A stretch of 64,000 nucleotides of DNA. Origin: Candidatus Binatia bacterium. Lineage in GTDB: Bacteria; Desulfobacterota; Binatia; Bin18. Of this stretch, positions 18,804-64,000 are shown in pieces. Every line of letters starts with the position of its first letter. The stretch's first letter is position 1. The notes beneath the pieces are model-generated. The model was not told where the DNA came from. It searched no databases and saw only the letters and a list, made by a program, of their open reading frames with translations. The position numbers and the translations under genes are program-made. The DNA lies in assembly GCA_963666315.2 (NCBI GenBank), contig CAXXHG010000040.1, forward strand, positions 55,149 through 119,148, given 5' to 3'.

Positions 18804-18952
18804 GGCATAGGATTTAGGGACCTCCCCTAAATGCGAAGAGGTGGGGACGGGATCTGCCGCGTCGACGCCGTAGGAGGGAGAACTGAGACAGGTGTGGACG
18901 ACGTGTGTCCAATTGCCGTTCGCCCTGCCGGCTGCTAGTAATATCTGTGCCT

Positions 18953-19786
18953 ATGCCAAGTCCAGAAAACTCAATCGACTACGAAGTCGTTCGGTGTTAT
19001 TTCGACGACGCGGCCGATGGAGCCTCGGTTGCCGCCAGCTATATGGCCCACGGGCAGGACTTGCCGCACGGCGCCATGCGCTACCGATTCGAGGTCGAAC
19101 GGCAAACGATCGCCGATTGGCTGGACGCAGTTCCCAAGTCCGCCACCGTCCTCGACGTGGGCTGTGGGGCGGGTGCCTGGACAAGAATCTTTGCTGATCG
19201 CTACGCTCGTGTCATCGGTATCGAGGGTAGTAGCTCGATGGTGGAGGCTGCGCGGCAACAGACCCGGAACGCACCCAACGTCGAAATCCTGGCGGGCGAC
19301 GTGCGAGTCGACCTGCCTGACCGAAAATTCCAGCTCGCCTTTCTCGGCGGCCTTTGCATGTATTTGAATGACGACGATGTTGTCGCCTTATTGAGTGATC
19401 TCAAGCATCGTGTGGGAGGCACTGGGGCGATCGTCCTTCGGGAAAGCACCGTCCCCAGGAAGCGGCGCATGGCGACCGGAGACTATCAGGCGGTGTACCG
19501 CACCGTCGCGGACTACCACGAACTGTTCGCGCGGGTGGGTTTTTCGCGCCTCGAGACGCGGCGTAACTATGGCTACACGAGTATGGAGATTGCCATCGAG
19601 CTGGTCGGTGCCCGTCGAAGGTGGCTTTCGTTCCTCCCACGCCAATCCAGACTGCTCGGGGCGATGACGTGGTGGTGTCTTCGCCTGACGTCTCCCGTGA
19701 GCTTTTGGGCCGTGCCACGCGCACTTGAGCGAATCGACGTAGCCTGGCCGAGCTTGCAGAACCATTTTTTCCGCCTCACCCCGTGA
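18953..19786 (+). CDS. Class I SAM-dependent methyltransferase, phosphoethanolamine N-methyltransferase-like
   Basis: VLDVGCGAG motif I; LCMYLNDDDV..LL......G.IVLRES resembles the LLMYLSD.EV...GG.IFFRES segment of plant PEAMT. Confidence 0.7.
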   Translation: MPSPENSIDYEVVRCYFDDAADGASVAASYMAHGQDLPHGAMRYRFEVERQTIADWLDAVPKSATVLDVGCGAGAWTRIFADRYARVIGIEGSSSMVEAARQQTRNAPNVEILAGDVRVDLPDRKFQLAFLGGLCMYLNDDDVVALLSDLKHRVGGTGAIVLRESTVPRKRRMATGDYQAVYRTVADYHELFARVGFSRLETRRNYGYTSMEIAIELVGARRRWLSFLPRQSRLLGAMTWWCLRLTSPVSFWAVPRALERIDVAWPSLQNHFFRLTP

Positions 19787-20420
19787 ACGCGCCAGCCAGC
19801 TGGCGAACATTGAACACGGTCATCGCCACGACGTACGCCGCGACGACGTAGTACCACGTCCGAGTCGGTTTGGACATACGAAACGGGGCGACGTTCAACA
19901 TGGCGAGGACGACGACCACTGCGTAGAGCAGCCAGGGAAACGCGACATGGCCGACAGTCTCGCGGACGGCGAACAGCGCGGTGACCACAATGATGTTCGT
20001 ATCGATGGGCAGGCCGCTGTACGTATCGTCATCGTCGAAGACGTTGAAATAAGCAAGTCGAATCGCTCCCGCCACCGTGAGCACGAAGGCTCCCGGCAAG
20101 AACCAAGGGGCGAAGCCACTGCTGGAGAGCAGCAGCATTGCGGGTGCGATGCCACCGCACACCAGATCGGCAAGGGAATCAAGTTGCCCGCCGAAAGCGC
20201 GGTCGACATCGGTCCGATTGGTCATTCCACGAGCGATCGGACCATCGAACCAATCGCAGAACAACGCCCAGAGGAGCGCGATGGTCGCGGCTGTGAGAGC
20301 TTGGAGCGAGCTGAAATAAATGGACGAGACACCGCAGAGCAGCCCGGCCAGCGTCAACAGGTTCGCGCGGTCGCACAGGAACGAAATGGTGCTCCGCTTG
20401 CCAGTCACGTTTCGAGACAT
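19776..20420 (-). CDS. CDP-alcohol phosphatidyltransferase (PssA-like)
   Basis: ANLLT; DWFDGPIAR...FGGQLDSLADL signature; RLAYFN; multiple TM segments. Confidence 0.9.
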   Translation of the reverse strand: MSRNVTGKRSTISFLCDRANLLTLAGLLCGVSSIYFSSLQALTAATIALLWALFCDWFDGPIARGMTNRTDVDRAFGGQLDSLADLVCGGIAPAMLLLSSSGFAPWFLPGAFVLTVAGAIRLAYFNVFDDDDTYSGLPIDTNIIVVTALFAVRETVGHVAFPWLLYAVVVVLAMLNVAPFRMSKPTRTWYYVVAAYVVAMTVFNVRQLAGAFTG

Positions 20421-22276
20421 TGCCACAAGGCTTGTACGAGCGTGTCGTTCTCCGGTTCTGTTCGGCTAGCGATGCGTAGATACCTCGCCGCCGCGGGCAT
20501 ATTCTTGCCGGCACAGTGCTTCACGTAGAGGTTGAAATCCATAAAGAGACGCTTGGCGACCTCCGGAGCGGTCGGGCCCGGAGTCGGGAGGCGACACATC
20601 ACGAAGTTGGCGTCTGGCTTGTAGGCGGTGATGCCCGGAATCCGCGACAACCCTTCGTAGAGTCGATCGCAGTCCGCGCGAACCCGGACGCAACTTTCTC
20701 TGAAGGCGCGACGATAGCGCGGCGCGAGGCGAAGGAACGACTCGGCGAATCCATTGACGTTCCAGATGTGGAGCTCGGAGCGAACGGCGTCCGCAAAACT
20801 CGGGTTGCGGGTCAGGAGGTAGCCGAGGCGCAGGCCTCCGATTCCGAACGACTTGCTAAGGCTTTTGATGACCGCAAGATTAGGGGTTCTCTCAACCCAC
20901 CCTTCGACGCTGAGGTTCGTGCTGTCATTCGCGAAGTCCATGAAAGACTCGTCCACCACCACCATGCAGTCCCGCTCGCATAGTCGCTCCGCGAGCCGCA
21001 AGAGATCCCCTCTTGGGACGCTCAACGACGTGGGGTTGTTCGGCGAGACCACGATCGCTACCCGAGCGTTACAAGCGCTCGCGCGCTCGGCGAAAGCGTC
21101 CACGTCGAGCTCGAAGGAGGGGGATGGGAGCTCGAAGGGAACGAAGGATCGGTCTCGCGCGGCGTTTTCGTACTCGTTGAACGACGGAACCGGACAGATT
21201 ATTTGCCCAGCCAGGCGCCCGGAGATGATCTTGATCAATTCCGAAGCACCGTTCCCCACCACGAGCCACGCGGGCGGCTGATCGATCAAGGTACCAACCA
21301 GTCGCGCGACGACGTCTTGCCCGGCGGGATAGTTGAGTACCAAGTCCCGGAGGTGGTTTTGGAAATGCGTGAATACCGTCTTCGGAGGGTAGTAGGGATT
21401 GTACAAGTATGCGTGGTCGACGAATCCGAACCGCCAGTACCCGCCATGCTGCTTGTCCACGTGTGCGTAACGCTGCTCTGGTGAGGAGAAGAGGTACTCG
21501 GCGGCTAGGCGGTCGCTTTCGTCGTCGATCTCGTACCAGTTGAGGTCGTCGCAGATGACGGCACGCAGGTCGTTCTTGCCGCGGTGCGCCAGCGCGATCA
21601 GAATCGATTCGTAGTGTTCGTTGGCGTCGTCGGCAGCGATGTACGCTTCCAGCTGCGGCACGAAATAGCGACGCAGGTAATCCTGGCGGAAGAGATAGAG
21701 ATTTGCGGTCTTGTAGACCTTCGAGTAATCGAATCCGTCATCCTGATGGTGCGCGTCAAACAATGCCGCGATGTGGCCCTGGCTGTCGACACTGACCACC
21801 GTGCCCGACATCCAACTCTGATGCTGCGAGACGACGGCCGAGTTGCCACCAACTTCGGATAGGAGCCGCTCGAGTACCGCACGCTCGAAAAAAACATCCG
21901 CCTCGAGGAGCAACACATCTTCCGTGAGATGAGAGCGCGCGAGCCACAGTGAATAGATGTTGTTGGTGGTTTCGTACGATTCGGCCACCACGTATACGAT
22001 CGACATTTCCAGGAACTTCGCGCCAAACTTCACGATAATCAGTTCCTTGTGATGACCGATGACGATGACAACTTCCTCGCAGCCGAGCGCCGCCAAGTGA
22101 GTCAGCGTGTTTTCGAGAATCGGAACGCCGGCCACTTCAACGAAGCACTTCGGATACTCCCGCGTGTAGGGCCGTAAGCGGGTGCCCACGCCGGCAGCGA
22201 GAATGACGGCCTTGCGCACGGGTTCAGGCTTTGCCTGATTCACGTGCAGCGACGCGCTAGCGTCTTCACCCCACAT
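20405..22276 (-). CDS. Fusion: LicC-like nucleotidyltransferase + class I/II PLP enzyme (CobD/HisC-like); start uncertain (22243-22276)
   Basis: KAVILAAGVGTRL.P.T...PKC, TNNIYSLWLA, WYEIDD; then GNGASELI, SPNNPT, VDESF.DF, KSLSKSFGIGGLRLGY. Confidence 0.88.
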   Translation of the reverse strand: MWGEDASASLHVNQAKPEPVRKAVILAAGVGTRLRPYTREYPKCFVEVAGVPILENTLTHLAALGCEEVVIVIGHHKELIIVKFGAKFLEMSIVYVVAESYETTNNIYSLWLARSHLTEDVLLLEADVFFERAVLERLLSEVGGNSAVVSQHQSWMSGTVVSVDSQGHIAALFDAHHQDDGFDYSKVYKTANLYLFRQDYLRRYFVPQLEAYIAADDANEHYESILIALAHRGKNDLRAVICDDLNWYEIDDESDRLAAEYLFSSPEQRYAHVDKQHGGYWRFGFVDHAYLYNPYYPPKTVFTHFQNHLRDLVLNYPAGQDVVARLVGTLIDQPPAWLVVGNGASELIKIISGRLAGQIICPVPSFNEYENAARDRSFVPFELPSPSFELDVDAFAERASACNARVAIVVSPNNPTSLSVPRGDLLRLAERLCERDCMVVVDESFMDFANDSTNLSVEGWVERTPNLAVIKSLSKSFGIGGLRLGYLLTRNPSFADAVRSELHIWNVNGFAESFLRLAPRYRRAFRESCVRVRADCDRLYEGLSRIPGITAYKPDANFVMCRLPTPGPTAPEVAKRLFMDFNLYVKHCAGKNMPAAARYLRIASRTEPENDTLVQALWQCLET

Positions 22277-22639
22277 CCTGCCGCGTCGGGTTTTCTCGGA
22301 ATCGAAATTTATAGCGTCTGGCAATGGTAGCATCCGTGTATGACGAAATAACACAAGGCAGAGCGAAAGGAAATCGTAGCTGTCGTGTAGCGCGTCAGAG
22401 GAAGTTGGACCAAAGAGCGGTGTAGAATAGGAGACACTTTCAGGGCCACGAAGGCAGTAGGGACCACCCACTGGCAGCAGGTGCTGGAAACAGTATAAAA
22501 GATCAAACAGATTACTCCCCAGGGCAATCGCTTCAAAGAGCGGCGCCAGTGAGGACTTGCGCTAGTTTGACTTTTCAGCCGGATTTTGAGGGCTGACCCT
22601 CCTCCGCTTCCTTGCGCTTCTTTGCTATGATGTCCGACC

Positions 22640-46078: not shown

Positions 46079-47275
46079 ATGCTCGCCCTCGATCACATAC
46101 GTATCCTTGATCTATCACACTTCGAGGCTGGTCCGTCCTGCACGGAATCATTGGCCTTCCTGGGTGCGGACGTCATAAAAATTGAGCCCCCAAAGAGCGG
46201 AGAGGCGGCACGCAATTTTCTGACAAACGAACCTGGACTCGATTCTCATTTGTTTATTCTGCTGAATGCCAATAAGCGCAGTGTTACGCTCAATCTCAAA
46301 ACCGAACGCGGTCGTGACCTCTTCCGCTCATTCGTCCCGCACGTTGATGTGGTGCTCGAAAACTTCTCTCCCCATACCATGGAAGGTCTGGGACTAGGCT
46401 ATGATACCCTCCGGCAGCTCAACGTGCGGCTCATCTATGCCACGATTAAAGGCTTTGGCACTTTCGGGCCGTGGAGCGGCTATAAAAGTTTCAACTCCAT
46501 TGCACAGTCGACCGGCGGAGCGCTGAGCATCACCGGTTTAGCGGATTCACCGCCGCTTAAACCCGGTCCAACGATTGGGGATACGGGCACGGGCATACAC
46601 TGTGCAGTAGGCATCCTCGCGGCGCTGCTACAGCGCGGGAAAACCGGCCAGGGCCAACACGTTGAAGTTTCCATGCAAGACGCCGTGGTCAATTATATGC
46701 GCGTGCCCCTGCGGCATCATATCCAGACCGACACGGTCGTCCAGCGCAGCGGCAACCGCCTCAGCCATGCGGCGCCAACAGATACCTACCCCTGTGCTCC
46801 AGGCGGTCCGAATGACCACGTCTATTTGATGGCAACCACACCGCGCATGTGGGAAAATATCTTACGTATCATTGGACGCGAGGATCTGATTGGCGACCCG
46901 CGCTATACGAGCATGTCCGAGCGGAACCAACATTTTGACGAGGTGTATGACTTCATTAAGGCCTGGACCTTGCAGCATCCCAAGTTTGACGTCATGGAAC
47001 GGTTTGGGAAGGCAGGGGTCCCGTGCGGGGCGGTCTTTGATTCACAAGATATCCTGACTCACCCGCAGCTTCGCGAACGCGGTATGGTCGTGACCATCGA
47101 ACACCCCACGCGGGGATCCATTACAATACCCGGCTGCCCGGTGCAGCTTGACGATTCGCCGGTCACAGTGACCCCAGCTCCCTTACTGGGCCAACACAAT
47201 AGCGAGGTATACCAAGACCTTCTTGGTCTCTCTGCAGAAAATCTGCAAGAGATGGAAAAAGAGGGCGTTATTTAA
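46079..47275 (+). CDS. Family III CoA-transferase (CaiB/BaiF, formyl-CoA transferase-like)
   Basis: AGPSCT..LA.LGADVIKIE.P, NANKRS.TLNLK, ENF.P, GDTGTG, APLLGQHN. Confidence 0.93.
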   Translation: MLALDHIRILDLSHFEAGPSCTESLAFLGADVIKIEPPKSGEAARNFLTNEPGLDSHLFILLNANKRSVTLNLKTERGRDLFRSFVPHVDVVLENFSPHTMEGLGLGYDTLRQLNVRLIYATIKGFGTFGPWSGYKSFNSIAQSTGGALSITGLADSPPLKPGPTIGDTGTGIHCAVGILAALLQRGKTGQGQHVEVSMQDAVVNYMRVPLRHHIQTDTVVQRSGNRLSHAAPTDTYPCAPGGPNDHVYLMATTPRMWENILRIIGREDLIGDPRYTSMSERNQHFDEVYDFIKAWTLQHPKFDVMERFGKAGVPCGAVFDSQDILTHPQLRERGMVVTIEHPTRGSITIPGCPVQLDDSPVTVTPAPLLGQHNSEVYQDLLGLSAENLQEMEKEGVI

Positions 47276-56190: not shown

Positions 56191-57096
56191 ATGAATACTG
56201 CCGTCGGCTTTATTGGACTAGGAAGAATGGGCCTCCCCATGGCCCAACATCTTCTTGATGCCGATTTCTCACTCAGCGTCTTTAACCGCACCGCTGCTCG
56301 TGCTGACGCGTTGCTTCAGCGCGGGGCCCAGTGGGCGGCGTCTCCACAGGCGCTTGCCGAACAATGCGACATTGTGGTCAGCATGATTGCCGATGACGCA
56401 GCCCTGCGCACCATCGCCCTCGGCGAGCAGGGCATCTTGGCCGGTCTCAAACAGGACGGTATTCACGTTGATATGAGCACGGTCTCGCCGGATGTCACAC
56501 AGGAATTGGTTCCGCTATACCGAGAACGGGGGACTCATTTTGTTGCCTCCCCGGTCTTTGGCCGTCCCGAGGCTGCGGCCGCCGCAAAATTGTGGATCTG
56601 CCCGGCTGGTCCGACCGCGGTTGTTGATCGTTGTCGCCCACTGTTTGACGCCATGGGGCAGGGTGTCATCCTCGTTGGGGAAGAGGCGCACTTAGCCAAT
56701 GTCTTAAAATTGGTTGGAAATTTTTTTGTCATCGCAGCCATCGAAACCTTAGGTGAGGCGTTTACATTGGCAGAAAAAGGGGGACTCAAAAACGAAACGG
56801 TCTTGGATCTGATTCAGGCCCTCTTGCCTGTCCCCTTATTTCAGGGATATGGCAGTCGTATTGCCAAGCACGAGTACACTCCAGCCGGCTTTGCCTTAGC
56901 GCTCGGACTCAAGGATGTCGGTCTGATGCAAAAATTGGCCAAAGACGTCGTCGCCCCCTTGCCTCTGGCCGACTTGGCCGGCAATCATCTGCGGGCTGCC
57001 TTTGCCAGAGGACGGGGCGATCTCGACTGGGGAGCACTGGCTACCGTCATCCGCGAGATGGCCGGCCTCCCGTCCGGCGCGGAAGAGGCACAATAG
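56191..57096 (+). CDS. NAD(P)-dependent 3-hydroxyisobutyrate/6-phosphogluconate dehydrogenase family protein
   Basis: GFIGLGRMG, DMSTVSP, PVFGRPEAA, KLVGN, LGLKD. Confidence 0.9.
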   Translation: MNTAVGFIGLGRMGLPMAQHLLDADFSLSVFNRTAARADALLQRGAQWAASPQALAEQCDIVVSMIADDAALRTIALGEQGILAGLKQDGIHVDMSTVSPDVTQELVPLYRERGTHFVASPVFGRPEAAAAAKLWICPAGPTAVVDRCRPLFDAMGQGVILVGEEAHLANVLKLVGNFFVIAAIETLGEAFTLAEKGGLKNETVLDLIQALLPVPLFQGYGSRIAKHEYTPAGFALALGLKDVGLMQKLAKDVVAPLPLADLAGNHLRAAFARGRGDLDWGALATVIREMAGLPSGAEEAQ

Positions 57097-57181
57097 GCAT
57101 CTCAGGCATCTCGAGAAAGACGAACTCCTTGCCCTGTGTGTTTCTCTTCAGCTGGCCCGTGTCATGTGGAGGACGGCTCTG

Positions 57182-58198
57182 ATGACAGCGGCTCAGAAAA
57201 AGCGTGGTTTACGGATTGGTGCCGCCCTCCTCGGCCTCAGCCTGCTTGGGTTTATATTCTGGAAGATAGGTCTCACTGAGGTGTCGCAGCATCTCTACTC
57301 TATTGGCTGGTTGGCTCCGCTTCTCCTCATTCCACAGAGCTGTGTCGCCCTGTTCGATGCCAAGGGCTGGGGCTGTACCATGGCCAACCGGACAAATGCT
57401 GGCCAGCTCTCGCTCCTGCGGCTCTCTTTGACTCGGTTGGCTGGTGAGGCGATTAATAACCTGACACCAACGGCCAATATGGGCGGTGAAGCCGTAAAGG
57501 TCTATCTACTGCGAAAATATGGCGTGACAGCCGATGTTGGTGCTGCTTCCGTTGTTGCAGCGAAAACTGCGCTGACCGTGTCACAAGTTGCCTTTATTGT
57601 GCTTGGCTTGCCGTTTTTCCTGTACCGGATGGATATTGGCTATCATGCGTGGTGGATCTTTGGCAGCGTCTTCGCGCTTGCGTATGGATTCATTATGGCT
57701 TTAGTCCGCTGGCAAAGACGGGGGATCGTTGAAAAATGTGTCGACTGGCTGAGACGTCGATTTCCACACCGGAACCGCTTGGAACGCTTGCAAGAACGGG
57801 CCAAGCAGATCGATGAGCACCTCTTTCATTTATATGCTGGTGATGCCAAAGATTTCGTTGCCGCAAGCCTGTATCACTTTCTCGGTTGGGTGTTTGGCGC
57901 GGTGGAAATATATGTCTTCTTTGCCCTTATCGGAACAGAGGCCAGCTGGATGGACGCCCTCATCATCGAAAGCATGATTCAACCCATCACCGCTGCATCC
58001 CTCGTCATTCCTGGCGCATTGGGTGTGCGTGAAGTCGGAGGCGTGTTTCTGTGCGGCCTGCTTGGCATTGGGGAAGGGGCCGGCCTGACCCTCATGGTTC
58101 TCAAGCGGGCGCGCGAGGCAGTGTACAACATGGTGGGCCTGTTCGTCTTAGCCCGGGCTGGGTACTCATTTTTTCCGCAAAAAGTGTCGGCATCGTAG
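57182..58198 (+). CDS. HpnL-like / lysylphosphatidylglycerol-synthase TM (flippase-like) membrane protein
   Basis: RLAGEAINNLTPTANMGGEAVKV, PGALGVRE.G, KRARE; adjacent to hpnJ. Confidence 0.8.
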   Translation: MTAAQKKRGLRIGAALLGLSLLGFIFWKIGLTEVSQHLYSIGWLAPLLLIPQSCVALFDAKGWGCTMANRTNAGQLSLLRLSLTRLAGEAINNLTPTANMGGEAVKVYLLRKYGVTADVGAASVVAAKTALTVSQVAFIVLGLPFFLYRMDIGYHAWWIFGSVFALAYGFIMALVRWQRRGIVEKCVDWLRRRFPHRNRLERLQERAKQIDEHLFHLYAGDAKDFVAASLYHFLGWVFGAVEIYVFFALIGTEASWMDALIIESMIQPITAASLVIPGALGVREVGGVFLCGLLGIGEGAGLTLMVLKRAREAVYNMVGLFVLARAGYSFFPQKVSAS

Positions 58199-58346
58199 CC
58201 GTCGCATAACTCCTCGTGCTTGCTATTTTTATTCGCTTCCATGTGTATAATGATTCGTTCGGAGGGATGGTCTGTTCTGAGACAGAACAGAGAAGGTAGG
58301 TCTGCTGCTATGCGGACTTGGCAGACCGAGAAGGAGAGATGTACGA

Positions 58347-59816
58347 ATGCGCACATTGTTTTTAAATCCGCCTGCGTATGAGAACTTTGACGGCGGAGCA
58401 GGCTCACGTTACCAGGCAACACGCGAGGTTTGGTCATTTTGGTACCCCACCTGGCTGTGTTACCCAGCGGGGATGATCAAAGGCAGTCGTGTTCTGGATG
58501 CCCCACCCGAGGGGATAAACCAAGCCCAGACCGTTGATATTGCCAAAGAGTATGACTTTATTGTTCTGCATACCAGCACGCCGTCTGTAACATTGGATGC
58601 TCGTACGGCAGAAATGATCAAAGAAATGAACCCCAATTGTACTATTGCTTTTGTGGGTGGTCATGCCACGGCGGAGCCGGAACAAACCCTGCAAATTTCG
58701 GAAGCGATCGATATCGCCGCTCGCAAAGAATTCGACCATTCGATGAAAGAGGTCGCTGAGGGCTGGGATTGGAAGGACATTCGAGGCATTAGCTACCGCA
58801 AAAACGGACAGATCTCCCACAACATGGAACGTCTGCCACTGACGAATGAAGAGCTCGATCAACTCCCCTTTGTCACCCAGATTTATGACCGCGACCTCAA
58901 CTTTCGTAAATACAACAGCCCATATTGCCAGTACCCATACGTATCCCTCTACACCGGGCGCGGCTGTCCGGCCCGCTGCACCTTTTGTCTGTGGCCGCAA
59001 GTGACAACAGGGCATTCCTATCGCACCCGTTCCGTTGGGAATGTGATTGAAGAAGTCCAGGAGATGAAACGACTCTTTCCCGGCATGAAAGAGGTCTTTT
59101 TTGACGACGATACCTTTACTGCCGACGCCAAGCGGGCGCGTGAGATTGCCACTAGACTCAAATCCCTCGGACTGTGCTGGTCCACCAACGCGCGTGGCAA
59201 TGTCGATTACGAAACGCTCAAAGTACTCAAAGATGGCGGGCTGCGGTTGTTTGTGGTCGGCTACGAGTCCGGCAATGCCCAAATCCTCAAGAATATTAAG
59301 AAAGGCGTTGCCTTAGAAACTTCACGCCGCTTTACCAAAGACTGTCACAAGGTCGGTATTTTAATACACGGAACTTTTATTTTGGGTTTGCCTGGTGAAA
59401 CTCGCGAAACTATGCAGGAAACCATGCGCTTTGCGCGAGAAATGAGTCCGGAAACCATTCAGGTTTCTCTGGCGTCACCCTACCCTGGTACCGCATTTTA
59501 CGATTTTGCACTCGAGAACGGCTATATTAAAGCGGACGATCTGGTCGGTGAGTCCGGCTATCAGAAGTGTGTGATTAACTATCCAAACCTGTCTGGGGAG
59601 GAGATCTTTGAAACGCTCGAGAAATTTTACCGCTCCTATTACCTGCGTCCGAGTTACATCTTTAAGGCTGTAAAAAAGATGGCGCGCGATCCGGAAGAAC
59701 GCAAACGCATGTGGCAGGAAGGCAAGGACTTCTTTCGCTCGATGCGCAAGCGCCGAGAGATGAACACTGCGGCGGACACGTCTTCTGCGGACACAGCCTC
59801 CTCGCCCGCCGCTTAG
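58347..59816 (+). CDS. hpnJ: Hopanoid biosynthesis radical SAM protein HpnJ
   Basis: FDGGAGSRYQA.RE..SFWYPTWL; GRGCPARCTFCLWPQ (CxxxCxxC); FFDDDTFT. Confidence 0.93.
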   Translation: MRTLFLNPPAYENFDGGAGSRYQATREVWSFWYPTWLCYPAGMIKGSRVLDAPPEGINQAQTVDIAKEYDFIVLHTSTPSVTLDARTAEMIKEMNPNCTIAFVGGHATAEPEQTLQISEAIDIAARKEFDHSMKEVAEGWDWKDIRGISYRKNGQISHNMERLPLTNEELDQLPFVTQIYDRDLNFRKYNSPYCQYPYVSLYTGRGCPARCTFCLWPQVTTGHSYRTRSVGNVIEEVQEMKRLFPGMKEVFFDDDTFTADAKRAREIATRLKSLGLCWSTNARGNVDYETLKVLKDGGLRLFVVGYESGNAQILKNIKKGVALETSRRFTKDCHKVGILIHGTFILGLPGETRETMQETMRFAREMSPETIQVSLASPYPGTAFYDFALENGYIKADDLVGESGYQKCVINYPNLSGEEIFETLEKFYRSYYLRPSYIFKAVKKMARDPEERKRMWQEGKDFFRSMRKRREMNTAADTSSADTASSPAA

Positions 59817-59876
59817 CGCCTTTACTCTATTGCATACTCCCCCCTCCTTCCGAGGAGGGGAGCCTCTCTGTACCCT

Positions 59877-61019
59877 ATGTCCGTCGTTGTGTTCTGGTCC
59901 TTGGTTGGTCTTCTTGTCGGTGCACTCGTGTATTATCTTTTTGCGCTGTATGCAGCCTGGCGATTTTTCCAGAACGGTGCTTCTGACGGAGACTCCTTAC
60001 CCCCGGTTTCCATTTTGAAGCCACTCAAGGGGGCCGCTCCCGACCTCTATTTTAATCTCGCAAGCTTTTGTCAGCTTGATTGTTCAGTTTTTCAAATCGT
60101 GTGTGGGGTACGCGATCCTGACGATCCAGCCATCTCCGTAGTCAAAAAACTTCAGCACGACTTCCCCCAGTGCGATATCACCCTAGTGATTGAGCCCGAC
60201 GTTATTGGGACGAACTACAAGGTCAGCACCTTGCACCATCTTATGCAACGGGTCAAACACGACTATGTTGTGATTACTGACAGTGATGTTTCCGTCGAGC
60301 CGAATTATCTTTCCACCATTATCCCGCCGCTCACGAATCCAGAGGTGGGCCTGGTGACCTGTGTTTACCGGGCAGGCGTCATCCAGCCGTTCCCGGCTCT
60401 GCTCGAATCGCTCATGATCAACACCTCATTTACAACTCAAGTCATCGTCGCAAGCCAGGTTGAGCAGACCGCGTACGCCTTTGGCGCAACGATTGCGTTA
60501 AAACGGCACAGCCTTGAGGCCATCGGTGGGTTTGCTGCTCTGCGCGACTATCTTGCTGACGATTATTATCTGGGCTTTCTCATTGCGCAGGCCGGTTACA
60601 CAGTCCGCATTCTCCCCGCTGTTGTTGAAACCCACCCGGATGCAGCCTCGCTCAAGGATTTGTTTCAGCATCAGCTGCGCTGGGCTCGTACACAACGGAA
60701 CTGCAGACCAAGCGGGCATCTTGGTACCGTAGTGACCTACGGGACGGTATGGGCTTGCGTTGGGCTGATATGCTTTTGGACGTCCTCAGCACTGGCCCTT
60801 CTTTCCAGCATCGTCATTGGGATACGACTCCTGACAGCGGCAATTATGAGCGTAATTTTTCTCCGCGCTCGCCTTCCCCTGGCCACACTCATGCTGATTC
60901 CCCTGACAGACATCATTTCCTTTATCGTCTGGTGTGCCAGCCTGCATGGTAATACGGTTCAATGGCAAGAGTATACGTTTCGTATCCAAAAAGACGGCAG
61001 GATGGTCCGCGTCGGCTAA
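59877..61019 (+). CDS. hpnI: Bacteriohopanetetrol glucosamine glycosyltransferase HpnI
   Basis: PPVSILKPLKG, G.N.KV, DSD, LADDYYLG, HQLRWART. Confidence 0.9.
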   Translation: MSVVVFWSLVGLLVGALVYYLFALYAAWRFFQNGASDGDSLPPVSILKPLKGAAPDLYFNLASFCQLDCSVFQIVCGVRDPDDPAISVVKKLQHDFPQCDITLVIEPDVIGTNYKVSTLHHLMQRVKHDYVVITDSDVSVEPNYLSTIIPPLTNPEVGLVTCVYRAGVIQPFPALLESLMINTSFTTQVIVASQVEQTAYAFGATIALKRHSLEAIGGFAALRDYLADDYYLGFLIAQAGYTVRILPAVVETHPDAASLKDLFQHQLRWARTQRNCRPSGHLGTVVTYGTVWACVGLICFWTSSALALLSSIVIGIRLLTAAIMSVIFLRARLPLATLMLIPLTDIISFIVWCASLHGNTVQWQEYTFRIQKDGRMVRVG

Positions 61020-61903
61020 GTCTCCAGTGCCGAAAGGTCGCGGTAGTTCACTAGCTGGATGGCCTGCGTAGCAATAGCATTGCGTACGGCAGCACTCGTC
61101 AGCGCATCCAGCTCAGCATCCCTGCGATATGTTGGTGTCCAACGCTGCACTTCAGGGCACGGCAAAAAAGACGGATGACAGTATAACTCCGTCACTCCGT
61201 CTCGAAGCTGTGGCAGGAGTCCGAGTAGATAGCGCTCATCCAGGCCTCCACTTTGATGCAGTCCAAACAGGTAATCGGGATACCGAATCCCGGCTTGATG
61301 CAGTTTCTTTTCAGCCTCCTGGGCTAAGTGTGAAAAAACGAACGCTTCCCAGCGTTTTCGTAACGCCTGGCTCGAATCAAGCCTAAGACTACAGCCTACA
61401 TCTTCTCGCGTTAAACGGATGGCGGGAATCCGGTATTCTTCACTCAACTCTAGCAGGGCATCCAGCACCACCGGATGCATGTGAATATTCACATGTCCAT
61501 CCACATGAGAGAGCGGCAGCCCAGTTTCCAGAAAACGCTCGATCTGAGCACGGCACTCGGCCCGGACCTCATTCCGGGCGCGCCTTGAGAAAAAATAGCG
61601 CAGCCCAGCAAGCGTCGGATTGTGAGAAAAATTCCCTGCACTATCAATCAGAGAGGGAAGCAACCGGGGCGGGAGTACCGCTCTCCCTTGGACGAGAGTC
61701 AAGTGCAGCCCAACGCCTAGACTTGCCGTTGACCGGGCAATCTCAACCGCCTCCTCCCAGGCCAAGGCAGCCACCATCAGACTGGTATTAGTCAGAATGC
61801 CGTTGCGATGGGCGTGCAAAATGCCGGCATTGACCTGAGCCGACAGACCAAAATCATCACCATTTACGATAAGATAACGCGGGGCTGGAGAGACGGTGGG
61901 CAT
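61016..61903 (-). CDS. hpnK: Hopanoid-associated deacetylase HpnK (YdjC family)
   Basis: LIVNGDDFG, GIL..TSLMV, GLHLTLV, H.DGH...H.HP, ELYCHP. Confidence 0.9.
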   Translation of the reverse strand: MPTVSPAPRYLIVNGDDFGLSAQVNAGILHAHRNGILTNTSLMVAALAWEEAVEIARSTASLGVGLHLTLVQGRAVLPPRLLPSLIDSAGNFSHNPTLAGLRYFFSRRARNEVRAECRAQIERFLETGLPLSHVDGHVNIHMHPVVLDALLELSEEYRIPAIRLTREDVGCSLRLDSSQALRKRWEAFVFSHLAQEAEKKLHQAGIRYPDYLFGLHQSGGLDERYLLGLLPQLRDGVTELYCHPSFLPCPEVQRWTPTYRRDAELDALTSAAVRNAIATQAIQLVNYRDLSALET

Positions 61904-61906
61904 GGC

Positions 61907-62656
61907 TCATGCTGCTCGATCCAGCCGGTCTAGTGCCTCAATCTGTGGCAGGATGTCGCGCTCGGCTTTGTCCAAATCTTCCGGAAAATCTATCTCCGTC
62001 CAGGGCAGATCATCAACCCGTTCAAAGCCAACGTATCGTTGAGATAGGAATACTGGGAAGGCTTCCTCATGCTCGATGGTGTCTCGTCCCTGCGCAACAA
62101 AATCATCAAGAATAGAGCGCAAGAGCGGAGCATCATCTCGCCCGACTTTGAGAAAACCGACGGACTCGCCAATCAAATCGTAGTCGCCAGAGCCCCCACG
62201 GATAATAGTGAACACGCGTCCTTCACGCGTAAGTAACATTTGCTCTTCTCCCGTATTCTCAGCGCTCGCGTCAAGCAAAAAGCAGTTGAGCTGGTCAGAC
62301 TGGACAAGCCGCTTGAGCAAGCGCACCGGAAAAAGAACGTCGGCATCCATAATCAGGACGTCGTCGTTGAACTCCTCACGCGCGCTCCAGAGGGATAAAA
62401 TAGCGCCCTTCTCATATTGCGCGTTCTGAATGTAGCGAACGCGGACACCACCACACTGATCCCCAATTTCCTGGGAGATCATCTCACCCAGGTAGCCAAT
62501 CACCACAACCGCCTCATGCACTCCGACCGCACCCAAGGCAGTCAGGATCCGTTCCAGCAGCATGATGCCCTTCACTTCAATCAAACACTTGGGCCGCTGA
62601 TCGGTGATTTCTCTGAATCGCTTTCCAACTCCGGCGGCTAGGATAATGGCCTTCAT
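61907..62656 (-). CDS. LicC/PntC-type (phosphocholine/phosphonate) cytidylyltransferase
   Basis: KAIILAAGVGKR, PKCL, MDADVLF, GEE, GESVGF, W.EIDFPEDL. Confidence 0.85.
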   Translation of the reverse strand: MKAIILAAGVGKRFREITDQRPKCLIEVKGIMLLERILTALGAVGVHEAVVVIGYLGEMISQEIGDQCGGVRVRYIQNAQYEKGAILSLWSAREEFNDDVLIMDADVLFPVRLLKRLVQSDQLNCFLLDASAENTGEEQMLLTREGRVFTIIRGGSGDYDLIGESVGFLKVGRDDAPLLRSILDDFVAQGRDTIEHEEAFPVFLSQRYVGFERVDDLPWTEIDFPEDLDKAERDILPQIEALDRLDRAA

Positions 62657-63741
62657 GCTCTTGCACCCGACAATGTGTCTTTGAGCGCACCAAGAAAACG
62701 CTGAAAATCTTCGGAAGTTAGGTGACCCATATTCGCAACCCGAAACACCTCGGTCCGGAGCTTGCCCTGCCCCTCGTAAATCACGAATCCACGCTGTTTG
62801 AGCCCATCGTGTAAGCCTCGGTAGGAGGCTGCGTGAGGAAGAAGGAGAGAGGTCAAGGAGTTGGAGCGCACTTCGGGGGGCAGCAGGAATTCGAGCTCAA
62901 GATCAGCAAAGCCGTCTCGGAGGAGTTGGGCCGCTGCGCGGTAACGCGCCACCCGGCCAGCAGGTGTTTCCTCTAACAGCTCATCCAGGGCGGCGTCGAG
63001 CGCATACCAAGCTGGAATGGCCGGCGTAAACGGAACGCTACGGCGTTCCTGCGCTTCCCAATGGAGTGGCAGATGAAGATACAGTGAGTGGCGAGGATAG
63101 TCTCCCATCGCGGCCATGGCTTCATTGCGAACCAAGAGAAATGATACTCCCGGTTGCCCTTGGACGCATTTGTTTGCCGTACACGCGCACAGGTCTACCA
63201 TATCGCGCGCGACATCAAGATCGTCTCCGCCAAGGGCGCTGACGGCATCAAGGAGAAAGAGGCGGCTAGCCTGGCGAACCACGGCTCCGATCTCAGCGGC
63301 AGGATTCAGTAGTCCGGTTGTAGTCTCATGATGGACCAAGGCTACTGCGGCGATACTGGGATCGTGGCTGAGTGTCGATGCAATCTGGTCCACGTTCGGC
63401 GGTTCGGTCCAGCCATAGGTAAGTTCCACTACAGGAATGCGATGCGCCTCCGCCATTTGACGCATCCGGTCACCATACACACCATTGTTAATCACTAAGA
63501 GCTTTTTGCCATCCGGCAAGGCTGACGAGACCATAGCCTCAACGGCAAGCGTACCCGACCCGCTGACCACCACGGTGGTATAGCCATCCGGAGCAAACGC
63601 TCTGAGCAGTTTGCTCCGGATGGCAACAAGAAGATCCGAGAATTCTTCTTCCCGATGACACAAGTCGCCGCGCATGAGGGCTTGTTGAACGCGGGCAGAG
63701 ACATTGACCGGACCAGGGTTGAGGAGAATATATTGCTGCAT
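62653..63741 (-). CDS. 2-aminoethylphosphonate aminotransferase (AepZ/PhnW, class V PLP)
   Basis: LLNPGP, GSGT.AVEA, NNGVYG.R, VHHETTTG.LNP, DAVS..G, ANKC.QG.PG.SF, GFVIY.GQG. Confidence 0.85.
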   Translation of the reverse strand: MQQYILLNPGPVNVSARVQQALMRGDLCHREEEFSDLLVAIRSKLLRAFAPDGYTTVVVSGSGTLAVEAMVSSALPDGKKLLVINNGVYGDRMRQMAEAHRIPVVELTYGWTEPPNVDQIASTLSHDPSIAAVALVHHETTTGLLNPAAEIGAVVRQASRLFLLDAVSALGGDDLDVARDMVDLCACTANKCVQGQPGVSFLLVRNEAMAAMGDYPRHSLYLHLPLHWEAQERRSVPFTPAIPAWYALDAALDELLEETPAGRVARYRAAAQLLRDGFADLELEFLLPPEVRSNSLTSLLLPHAASYRGLHDGLKQRGFVIYEGQGKLRTEVFRVANMGHLTSEDFQRFLGALKDTLSGARA

Positions 63742-63754
63742 ATCTGTGGAGCTT

Positions 63755-64000
63755 TCAGCTGTCTTGCTGACGGCCAAGGGCCGACTGCTCACCGCGTATC
63801 GCTTCCATAAACCGAGCGACGATTTGAGGTGGTTCGTGTGTAATCCGACCGATTTTCCGCTCTTCCCGATCCGGCTCGATTTTAATCAACAGAAAAGAGG
63901 GGACCGGGCTGGGCCAACAGGTCCTGCGCGGCCCGTTTGTAGTTGATCCGGAGTCTCGGCTCGTCTCACATCGGTATAGCCACTCGCGCGGGCCACTGCG
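63755..64000 (-). CDS. C-terminus of a phosphonopyruvate/sulfopyruvate decarboxylase (TPP) subunit; runs off the window; two apparent +1 homopolymer indels
   Basis: Reconstructed AVARASGY...LLAQPGPSFLLIKI.P......GRI...P.QIVARFM resembles Ppd/ComE C-termini; it lies directly upstream of the AEP transaminase. Confidence 0.6.
   Translation of the reverse strand, partial: RSGPREWLYRCETSRDSGSTTNGPRRTCWPSPVPSFLLIKIEPDREERKIGRITHEPPQIVARFMEAIRGEQSALGRQQDS

Follow-up and report, generated by a model that had tools for sequence, protein, structure and literature searches.

An aminoethylphosphonate head-group pathway predicted within a hopanoid tailoring and export operon of Candidatus Binatia

In a Candidatus Binatia genome (GenBank assembly GCA_963666315.2), genes predicted to make and activate 2-aminoethylphosphonate (AEP) share an operon with a gene for extending hopanoids, at the end of a 64,000-nucleotide stretch of contig CAXXHG010000040.1 (C40; positions 55,149 to 119,148 of the forward strand, hereafter the window). 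Our analysis suggests that an AEP head-group pathway of the “Group 1 phosphonolipid” type is built into an operon for hopanoid tailoring and export. Judging by gene content, the product of the module is very probably a phosphonate, while a covalent linkage of AEP to the head group of an extended hopanoid is a reading that we advance at somewhat less than even confidence. Hopanoids rank among the main membrane lipids of bacteria and serve as biomarkers in geology; phosphonates form a large pool of organic phosphorus whose sources are poorly understood. New here are a hopanoid-integrated version of a known cluster type without a characterized product, a Cys-variant clade of phosphoenolpyruvate (PEP) mutase-like (Ppm) proteins, and the presence of HpnI, HpnJ, and HpnK in genomes without SHC.

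The locus was scored with curated NCBIfam models, which carry whole-protein cut-offs, and with Pfam models for domains. It comprises the following genes:

57164/57182-58198, plus strand: HpnL-like membrane protein, flippase-like (PF03706, 125.9 bits; TIGR03476, 183.2 bits)
58347-59816, plus strand: HpnJ, B12/radical SAM enzyme of the bacteriohopanetetrol (BHT) cyclitol ether step (TIGR03471, 721.2 bits; cut-off, 577.6)
59877-61019, plus strand: HpnI, GT21-type glycosyltransferase of the BHT-N-acetylglucosamine (BHT-GlcNAc) step (TIGR03472, 379.8 bits; cut-off, 310; PF13506)
61016-61903, minus strand: HpnK, YdjC-family deacetylase (TIGR03473, 318.9 bits; cut-off, 232.6)
61907-62656, minus strand: putative AEP cytidylyltransferase, a PntC-like nucleotidyltransferase (NT; PF12804 and PF00483 domain matches only)
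62653-63741, minus strand: AepZ-type AEP aminotransferase (AT; TIGR03301, 360.1 bits; cut-off, 360.8)
63755-64000, minus strand, open-ended: predicted 3′ end (81 codons) of the beta-subunit gene of a two-part thiamine pyrophosphate (TPP)-dependent decarboxylase, Ppd-like (by identity to a relative)

HpnJ, HpnI, and HpnK each clear the curated equivalog cut-off. The first gene of the plus-strand set stays below the TIGR03476 cut-off of 195.65 bits and is thus called only HpnL-like, a flippase-like protein of the PF03706/TIGR00374 type; it may start at the ATG at 57164 or at 57182, and its longest open reading frame begins with a TTG at 57002. On the opposite strand, hpnK closes a tight operon and converges on hpnI with a 4-bp overlap, the gap between hpnK and NT is 3 bp, NT and AT overlap by 4 bp, and AT likely starts with the ATG at 63741, 13 bp past the ppdB stop. 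A preceding sequence-only reading had described just this arrangement, with three plus-strand hopanoid genes meeting an hpnK that ends an operon of decarboxylase C-terminus, transaminase, and cytidylyltransferase, and the reading frames, spacing, and model scores agree with it. The original genetics of the HpnI/K/J pathway were done in Burkholderia. According to the tabulation in PMC12324291, HpnI, HpnK, and HpnJ act in succession to convert BHT to BHT-GlcNAc, BHT-glucosamine (BHT-GlcN), and BHT cyclitol ether. The Binatia genome resembles that pathway in having all three proteins above the cut-off together with shc and hpnH, and differs from it in that hpnK shares an operon with phosphonate genes.

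The end of the window coincides with the end of C40, so that the operon is cut by the assembly (47 contigs; 92% complete). Its complete form is seen in a relative (locus L025), where mlaA-like, hpnM-like, hpnN-like, ppdA, ppdB, AT, NT, and hpnK genes follow each other in this order and run convergently to hpnL-like, hpnJ, and hpnI, as in the window. Within the window’s own genome, another contig (C12) stops inside the hpnN ortholog, past the hpnM-like and mlaA-like genes; this end, together with the synteny of the relatives, indicates that about 2 kb of the operon, including the rest of Ppd, is unassembled between C12 and C40. The genes at the head of the operon are reminiscent of the HpnN/HpnM/Mla-like hopanoid trafficking described in PMC12324291, the difference being that in our case all three stand in an operon with phosphonate genes and score below threshold: in L025, the HpnN-like RND pump reaches 591.8 bits on TIGR03480 (cut-off, 751.85), the HpnM-like protein 48.3 bits (cut-off, 160.1), and the MlaA-like protein 83 bits (cut-off, 375). 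The 81-residue fragment at the window’s end matched no curated or Pfam model of its own, and it shows 87% identity with residues 149-195, the C-terminus, of a 195-residue protein of the relative (L025:10363-10950). We therefore assign it, by this similarity, to the C-terminus of a split decarboxylase beta subunit. The two subunits of the relative (161 and 195 residues) obtain 131.2 and 186.1 bits on the Ppd model TIGR03297 (cut-off, 312.5) versus 129.2 and 181.3 bits on the sulfopyruvate decarboxylase models ComD and ComE (alpha and beta). As for an intact Ppd elsewhere in the window’s genome, a TIGR03297 profile search returned unrelated TPP enzymes only.

The aminotransferase, taken as the long reading frame, misses the PhnW-AepZ cut-off of TIGR03301 by 0.7 bits, and orthologs are present in all 24 same-genus genomes sampled; at L071 and L072, two more distant loci, its homologs reach 324.5 bits and 339.1 bits, respectively. 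NT was matched by no curated PntC model. Its best relative among solved structures is PntC of Treponema denticola (Tde1415; PDB 6PD1/6PD2; PMC6697681), aligned over residues 2-245, that is, full length, with an E value of 1.9e-12 in 6PD1. The alignment retains Glu196, the ligand of the AEP amine, and the adjacency of NT and AT mirrors the fusion of PntC to AEP transaminase (AEPT) in the treponemal protein. Unlike PntC, the putative cytidylyltransferase NT has Asp in the place of Glu104, as in LicC, and its similarity to PntC amounts to only about 50 bits. A sister genus and genome G025 have a gene for an ArnT-like GT-C glycosyltransferase between NT and hpnK (L028:5914-7701; L039/L041/L044/L045, about 10.8 kb).

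The enzyme that would form the C-P bond is encoded away from this operon. The sole PEP-mutase-like gene of the genome (C29:36386-38074) encodes a 562-residue fusion of a PEP-mutase-like domain to a nucleotidyltransferase domain (PF13714 plus PF12804; hereafter the fusion) and is not linked to the window operon. A canonical pepM gene with the motif EDKxxxxxNS, which the sequence-only reading had proposed to look for, was found in this genome neither by a hidden Markov model search nor by a six-frame scan, the latter showing the motif in no long open reading frame; the 21 genomes of the genus that were searched likewise yielded none. Exactly one fusion gene occurs in 20 of these 21 genomes, with none of the 21 having a protein above the TIGR02320 cut-off, and the site reads EDNIFPKRCS at all 20 fusion loci of the genus. 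For comparison, solved PEP mutases have EDK..NS, phosphonopyruvate hydrolase EDK..TS, and the genome’s own lyase-type paralogs EDQ..KRCGH. Among Nitrospirota and Binatia of other families, the fusion gene adjoins the ppdA/B, AT, and NT genes, and all 20 module-adjacent fusions across Binatia, Nitrospirota, and one Planctomycetia metagenome-assembled genome (MAG) carry the Cys variant. Among the best 150 PEP-mutase-like representatives out of 1.84 billion proteins, EDK..NS was found in 81, EDN..CS in 21, EDN..NS in 10, EDQ..NS in 3, and EDS..CS in 2, next to 7 other single variants and 26 fragments without the motif site. In a FastTree phylogeny rooted on the lyase paralogs, the fusion belongs to a clade of 19 members, most of them EDN..CS, whose sister group comprises all 79 canonical sequences; further EDN lineages branch off more basally, and the supports are weak (0.6-0.85). 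Rice et al. (2019; PMC6697681) report that the field defines Ppm by EDKxxxxxNS, a definition under which the fusion, with its EDNIFPKRCS site, is not a Ppm. Judged by its genomic context, it nonetheless appears to behave like one.

Overlapping the fusion gene on the 3′ side is a gene for a soluble, SHC-like protein of 321-356 residues with squalene-cyclase-type repeats, and the pair (C29:36386-39126; L010:8386-11126) is translationally coupled at 20 of 20 genus loci. This small protein was found in 24 of 151 Binatia genomes, always beside the fusion, of which 21 have shc and 3 have no shc match; it was absent from all five shc-negative genomes tested. A role as a hopanoid-specific adaptor was considered and set aside, as many shc-positive module genomes lack the protein and the rule is not clean. 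In G025, a remnant of the fusion N-terminus lies upstream of the SHC-like gene, and a small CDP-alcohol transferase gene lies 3′ of hpnK.

Transfer of an activated AEP to a lipid would call for a cytidine diphosphate (CDP)-alcohol phosphotransferase. The genome has 12 PF01066 genes, two of which, the long paralogs C43:343463-344695 and C38:34291-35556, are homologous over their full length to the module-linked enzyme of Nitrospira. The former scores 39.1 bits on PF01066, and its alignment to 4O6M shows an intact catalytic motif, which we take to be D-x2-D-G-x2-A-R-x8-G-x3-D-x3-D. Their nearest solved relatives are AF2299 and IPCT/DIPPS (PDB 4O6M and 4MND), which they resemble in this motif and from which they would differ in the proposed donor, AEP activated as its cytidine monophosphate derivative (CMP-AEP) instead of CDP-inositol. 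Beyond this genus, the next gene or genes after NT usually encode a CDP-alcohol phosphotransferase, one to three HpnL-like proteins, or a combination of the two; in Omnitrophota and one Planctomycetia MAG it is fused to the transferase in the IPCT/DIPPS architecture. Within Binatia, the long transferase gene is located directly 3′ of NT in 12 genomes of three families (f7, f10, and f12), and it adjoins hpnJ/hpnI in G131 and hpnK in G160. The module-linked transferases of Nitrospira (L080:10802-12226) and Brocadiia (L072:10738-12054) align to nearly the whole IPCT/DIPPS model, suggesting that they carry an N-terminal NT-like domain, possibly degenerate.

The distribution of these genes over the class was surveyed in 151 Binatia genomes, the window’s own included; these are related genomes, so that the counts are not independent, and one of them (G110) was counted in the shc tally only. 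NT was found in 57 genomes, the fusion in 56, the long CDP-alcohol transferase in 39, HpnK in 97, and an shc match in 100. NT and the fusion occur together in 54 genomes (NT only, 3; fusion only, 2; neither, 92), and NT and the long transferase in 38 (NT only, 19; transferase only, 1; neither, 93), which bears out the expectation of a CDP-alcohol transferase in the genome, albeit as two unlinked paralogs with a phylogenetic profile like that of NT. These matching profiles, together with the transferase genes adjacent to NT or hpnK in other genomes, indicate that the dispersed genes of the genus are one system. NT coincides with HpnK in 48 genomes (NT only, 9; HpnK only, 49; neither, 45) and with shc in 45 (NT only, 12; shc only, 55; neither, 39). 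By distances collated by hand from the match coordinates, hpnK lies at most 1 kb from NT in 24 of the 57 NT-positive genomes (14 of family f1 and 10 of family f8), at a distance of 1-17 kb on the contig of NT in 15, and elsewhere in the genome in 9, and it was not found in 9. The tie to hpnK is thus conserved across families; the hopanoid and AEP gene sets noticed in the window stand interlocked in one conserved operon, and the NT-hpnK adjacency is kept in two Binatia families. The genes for hopanoid synthesis that were to be expected alongside are present at other loci of the window’s genome, with SHC at 639.2 bits (cut-off, 431.1), HpnH at 379.4 bits (cut-off, 225.05), and an hpnG-like gene below threshold.

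The association is seen beyond Binatia as well. The NT family has at least 523 relatives, and among the best 80 NT loci, 24 carry at least one hopanoid gene (hpnK, hpnI, hpnJ, shc, hpnH, or hpnN-like) in their flanks: 13 of 15 Binatia-like loci (NT at least 71% identical), 6 of 10 loci from other Binatia and “delta proteobacterium” MAGs, both Omnitrophota loci, one of two Planctomycetia loci, one of two from non-Scalindua Brocadiia, and the single Methylomirabilota locus, there HpnN-like only; three other single MAGs have none. The Omnitrophota locus L071 is one co-directional cluster of SHC (678 bits), HpnH (535 bits), PpdA, PpdB, AT, an HpnL-like protein, HpnA (480 bits), HpnG-like and SHC-like proteins, an NT::CDP-alcohol transferase fusion, and IspH (549 bits), and similar clusters were found at L081 (by tblastn) and at the Planctomycetia locus L066 (by tblastn and Pfam). 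The Brocadiia locus L072 has HpnJ (734 bits), HpnK (301 bits), and HpnI (349 bits) beside PpdA, PpdB, AT, NT, and a CDP-alcohol transferase. HpnL-like homologs lie 3′ of the AEP module in 35 of the 39 Nitrospirota loci, and those linked to AEP modules score 145-179 bits on TIGR03476; the statement that HpnL-family proteins occur in both hopanoid and AEP contexts is thereby upheld, since they accompany the module outside hopanoid loci. In all five module-carrying Nitrospira and Scalindua genomes tested, shc is encoded elsewhere in the genome.

The name of the cluster type to which the module comes closest, “Group 1 phosphonolipid”, reportedly goes back to Yu et al. 2013. Li & Horsman (2022; PMC8942020) equate it with their “Burkholderiales_CDP-OH” family of ppm neighborhoods, with a seven-gene core of Ppm::PntC, Ppd, AEPT, a second PntC, an oxygenase, and two phospholipid-type genes, and, according to that study, no phosphonolipid has been characterized from it. 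The legend of a figure of Nostoc and Burkholderia clusters in PMC5987646 lists a CDP-alcohol phosphatidyltransferase and hpnL. Like this core as there described, the Binatia module includes a Ppm-like::NT fusion, Ppd, AEPT, a stand-alone second PntC-like NT, a CDP-alcohol transferase, and an hpnL-like gene, so that every member except the oxygenase is in the genome, in dispersed form. No alpha-ketoglutarate/Fe(II) oxygenase is among the annotated genes of the window or of loci L025, L028, L071, L072, and L080, the genome as a whole not having been searched for one. Unlike Group 1, the Binatia Ppm-like domain has EDN..CS rather than EDK..NS, Ppd is split into two subunits, the module of this genus is dispersed over at least four loci, and its AT-NT pair is built into the hpnN...hpnK operon.

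In the literature covered, which leaves aside the supplements of Li & Horsman 2022 and of the hopanoid microsynteny preprint, we found no phosphonate-hopanoid compound, in line with the earlier claim that none has been described; the idea as such is less novel, as speculation about a phosphonoterpene is already in print. Passages of PMC7285500, PMC8942020, and PMC8776678 describe antiSMASH “phosphonate-terpene” hybrid regions in Nitrosococcus (GCF 731) and “terpene-phosphonate” clusters in acidophilic Acetobacteraceae and speculate about an undiscovered phosphonoterpene. As in our genus, AEP-core genes there adjoin squalene or hopanoid genes; the clusters, compared by description only, come from other taxa and, unlike the Binatia module, passed canonical Ppm filters. 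The accounts, in the text available, contain no analysis specific to hpnI/J/K, transferase, or export, and print mentions the hopanoid-phosphonate link only in passing in this way, for Nitrosococcus and Acetobacteraceae. Literature searches yielded nothing useful on phosphonolipids of Nitrospira/anammox bacteria or on PEP mutase motif variants.

The data show gene identities at the scores given, operon structure, conservation, and co-occurrence; each catalytic step, the phosphonate product, and the acceptor are inferred. In the pathway thus proposed, the unlinked fusion would generate phosphonopyruvate, the split decarboxylase PpdA/PpdB would pull this reaction toward phosphonoacetaldehyde, AT would form AEP, and NT would activate it to CMP-AEP, all in the cytoplasm. 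A CDP-alcohol phosphotransferase of the AF2299/DIPPS type would then pass the phosphonyl-ethylamine group to a hydroxyl of a membrane-lipid head group, the likeliest acceptor being an extended hopanoid that HpnH/G and HpnI/K/J produce, at its polyol, glucosamine, or cyclitol head group. Finally, after flipping by the HpnL-like protein, the product would reach the outer membrane through the HpnN-like RND pump and its HpnM-like and MlaA-like partners. More doubtful is the generalization that AEP-capped bacteriohopanepolyols are made and exported to the outer membrane by Binatia and also, through the cassette they share, by Omnitrophota and some Planctomycetota, perhaps even by Nitrospira and anammox bacteria, with the C-P bond made by an overlooked, early-branching, Cys-variant (EDN..CS) clade of PEP mutases.

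Several observations weigh against an AEP-capped hopanoid. The fusion scores 288.4-290.8 bits on TIGR02320, under the 319.55 cut-off, and has EDNIFPKRCS at its diagnostic site, not EDKxxxxxNS; the decarboxylase halves do nearly as well on sulfopyruvate decarboxylase models; no transferase gene is found within the operon of this genus; and the nearest solved relatives of the candidate transferases have inositol phosphate substrates or an unassigned specificity. On the hopanoid side, the synteny that holds within Binatia and recurs in other phyla breaks down in Nitrospirota and Scalindua, with hopanoid genes in the flanks of 0 of 39 and 0 of 6 loci, respectively. HpnI was found in only one of seven non-Binatia module genomes, so that GlcN or a cyclitol cannot be the acceptor in general. 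Moreover, 12 of the 57 NT-positive Binatia have no shc match. One of them, G003, has hpnH, and its shc is probably just unassembled, while G030 (98% complete, 6 contigs), G038 (100%, 3 contigs), and G131 have neither shc nor hpnH nor any PF13243 domain and yet keep NT, the fusion, HpnK, HpnJ (715, 710, and 674 bits), and HpnI (409, 376, and 338 bits), the three Hpn proteins scoring over their curated cut-offs. By this gene content, hopanoid synthesis by the cell itself is not required for the module to work, nor even for HpnI/J/K. The same content sets these genomes apart from the known HpnI-HpnK-HpnJ pathway and contradicts the generalization of preprint PMC12324291 (2025) that HpnG/I/J occur only in genomes with SHC and HpnH. 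The same CMP-AEP pathway could thus end on a non-hopanoid lipid such as diacylglycerol, ceramide, or another polar lipid, its coupling with hopanoids being functional (co-regulation or co-export) rather than covalent, a reading to which we give a substantial chance, if clearly short of even. It fits the identity of the module with the Group 1 phosphonolipid design as described, the modules standing alone in Nitrospirota and Scalindua, their persistence in Binatia without shc or hpnH, and the merely modest association with shc (45 of 57 NT-positive versus 55 of 94 NT-negative genomes); in addition, ethanolamine-phosphotransferase-type enzymes use CMP-AEP to make glycerophosphonolipids. Against it speak the independent occurrence of AEP genes within hopanoid clusters of Binatia, Brocadiia, Omnitrophota, and Planctomycetia, the retention of the NT-hpnK adjacency in two Binatia families, the coupling of an SHC-like alpha/alpha-toroid protein to the fusion at 20 of 20 genus loci, and, according to Li & Horsman (PMC8942020), the lack of a characterized phosphonolipid from this cluster type.

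A different head group altogether would result if the fusion were not a PEP mutase, for instance a sulfonate made by sulfopyruvate-type chemistry or another 2-oxoacid-derived amine made through a lyase-like Cys loop. We regard this as unlikely, even though EDNIFPKRCS keeps the K-R-C of the lyase paralogs and has neither the Lys nor the Asn of EDKxxxxxNS, all 20 module-linked fusions are Cys variants, the variant stays outside the group of all 79 canonical representatives, the decarboxylase halves barely distinguish Ppd from ComD/ComE, and AT and NT are at or under the curated thresholds. Among solved structures, PEP mutases are overall the nearest to the fusion (5UNC, 280 bits; 1M1B, 231 bits; phosphonopyruvate hydrolase 2DUA, 253 bits; lyases, at most 140 bits), it keeps the Ppm::PF12804 architecture described as typical of true Ppm in Rice et al. 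(2019; PMC6697681), and it co-occurs almost perfectly with Ppd-like, AepZ-like, and PntC-like genes; EDN..NS intermediates exist, and a nucleotidyltransferase and a CDP-alcohol phosphotransferase require a phosphorus-containing substrate. That CMP-AEP is spent on a glycan, lipid A, or a protein, as in known phosphonoglycans, seems quite improbable: PntC-dependent glycan tailoring is documented in Rice et al. (2019; PMC6697681), some Binatia loci have the ArnT-like GT-C enzyme between NT and hpnK, and in genome G033 an Arn-like operon for amino sugars, which includes an HpnL-like gene, lies near the module, but Pfam and curated scans showed no LicD-type or glycan-polymerase genes in the operon, and the genes conserved alongside it encode a CDP-alcohol phosphotransferase, a flippase-like protein, and lipid-export components. 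Least probable is a catabolic use of AEP of the PhnW type. AT does match PhnW models at 264 bits, but its 263.8 bits on the catabolic-type model TIGR02326 lie under the 400.8 cut-off, compared with 360.1 bits on the AepZ model; AEP catabolism as known makes no use of a decarboxylase, a nucleotidyltransferase, or a mutase-like enzyme, and curated-model scans revealed no phosphonatase gene in this operon, either in the window or in relatives.

Should AEP indeed be joined to a hopanoid, the product would represent a new class of lipids, and a hopanoid biomarker containing phosphorus would be waiting to be found. It would also offer a candidate product for the most common type of phosphonate cluster in bacteria, from which, according to Li & Horsman (PMC8942020), no product was ever characterized. 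Motif-based pepM surveys would discard the Cys-variant clade, and phosphonate producers in soils, sediments, and nitrifying/anammox communities would be undercounted. Even if AEP ends on a glycerolipid, a coherent PEP-mutase-like clade outside EDKxxxxxNS is part of complete AEP-type modules in Binatia, Nitrospirota, and Planctomycetia, and HpnI/J/K in Binatia without SHC and HpnH calls the hopanoid-specificity of these three enzymes into question.

Two further CDP-alcohol phosphotransferases of the genome were considered as partners of the module and rejected, as each belongs to another locus. One is part of a separate head-group locus in the window (18905-22471), assigned on Pfam matches only, where it pairs with an NT::aminotransferase I/II fusion:

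18905-19786, plus strand: methyltransferase, divergent (Pfam)
19776-20426, minus strand: CDP-alcohol phosphotransferase, 216 residues (Pfam)
20405-22471, minus strand: NT::class I/II aminotransferase fusion, 688 residues (Pfam)

The other lies on contig C37 in a minus-strand run of inositol-1-phosphate synthase, NT, and CDP-alcohol phosphotransferase genes (C37:38863-41299; L129; Pfam), likely a locus for an inositol-phosphate lipid or solute separate from the AEP system. A family III CoA-transferase gene is found next to each of the two long transferase paralogs (C43:343463-345937 and C38:34291-37011), 3′ of hpnK in G039 (L029:11520-12716), and once more in the window (46079-47275); this adjacency may be due to chance, the genome being rich in such genes. 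The HpnL-like gene of G033 is embedded in its Arn-like operon (L030:13920-19825) together with genes for a GFO/IDH/MocA oxidoreductase, a GT2 glycosyltransferase, and a DegT aminotransferase, next to a divergent PMT_2 GT-C enzyme.

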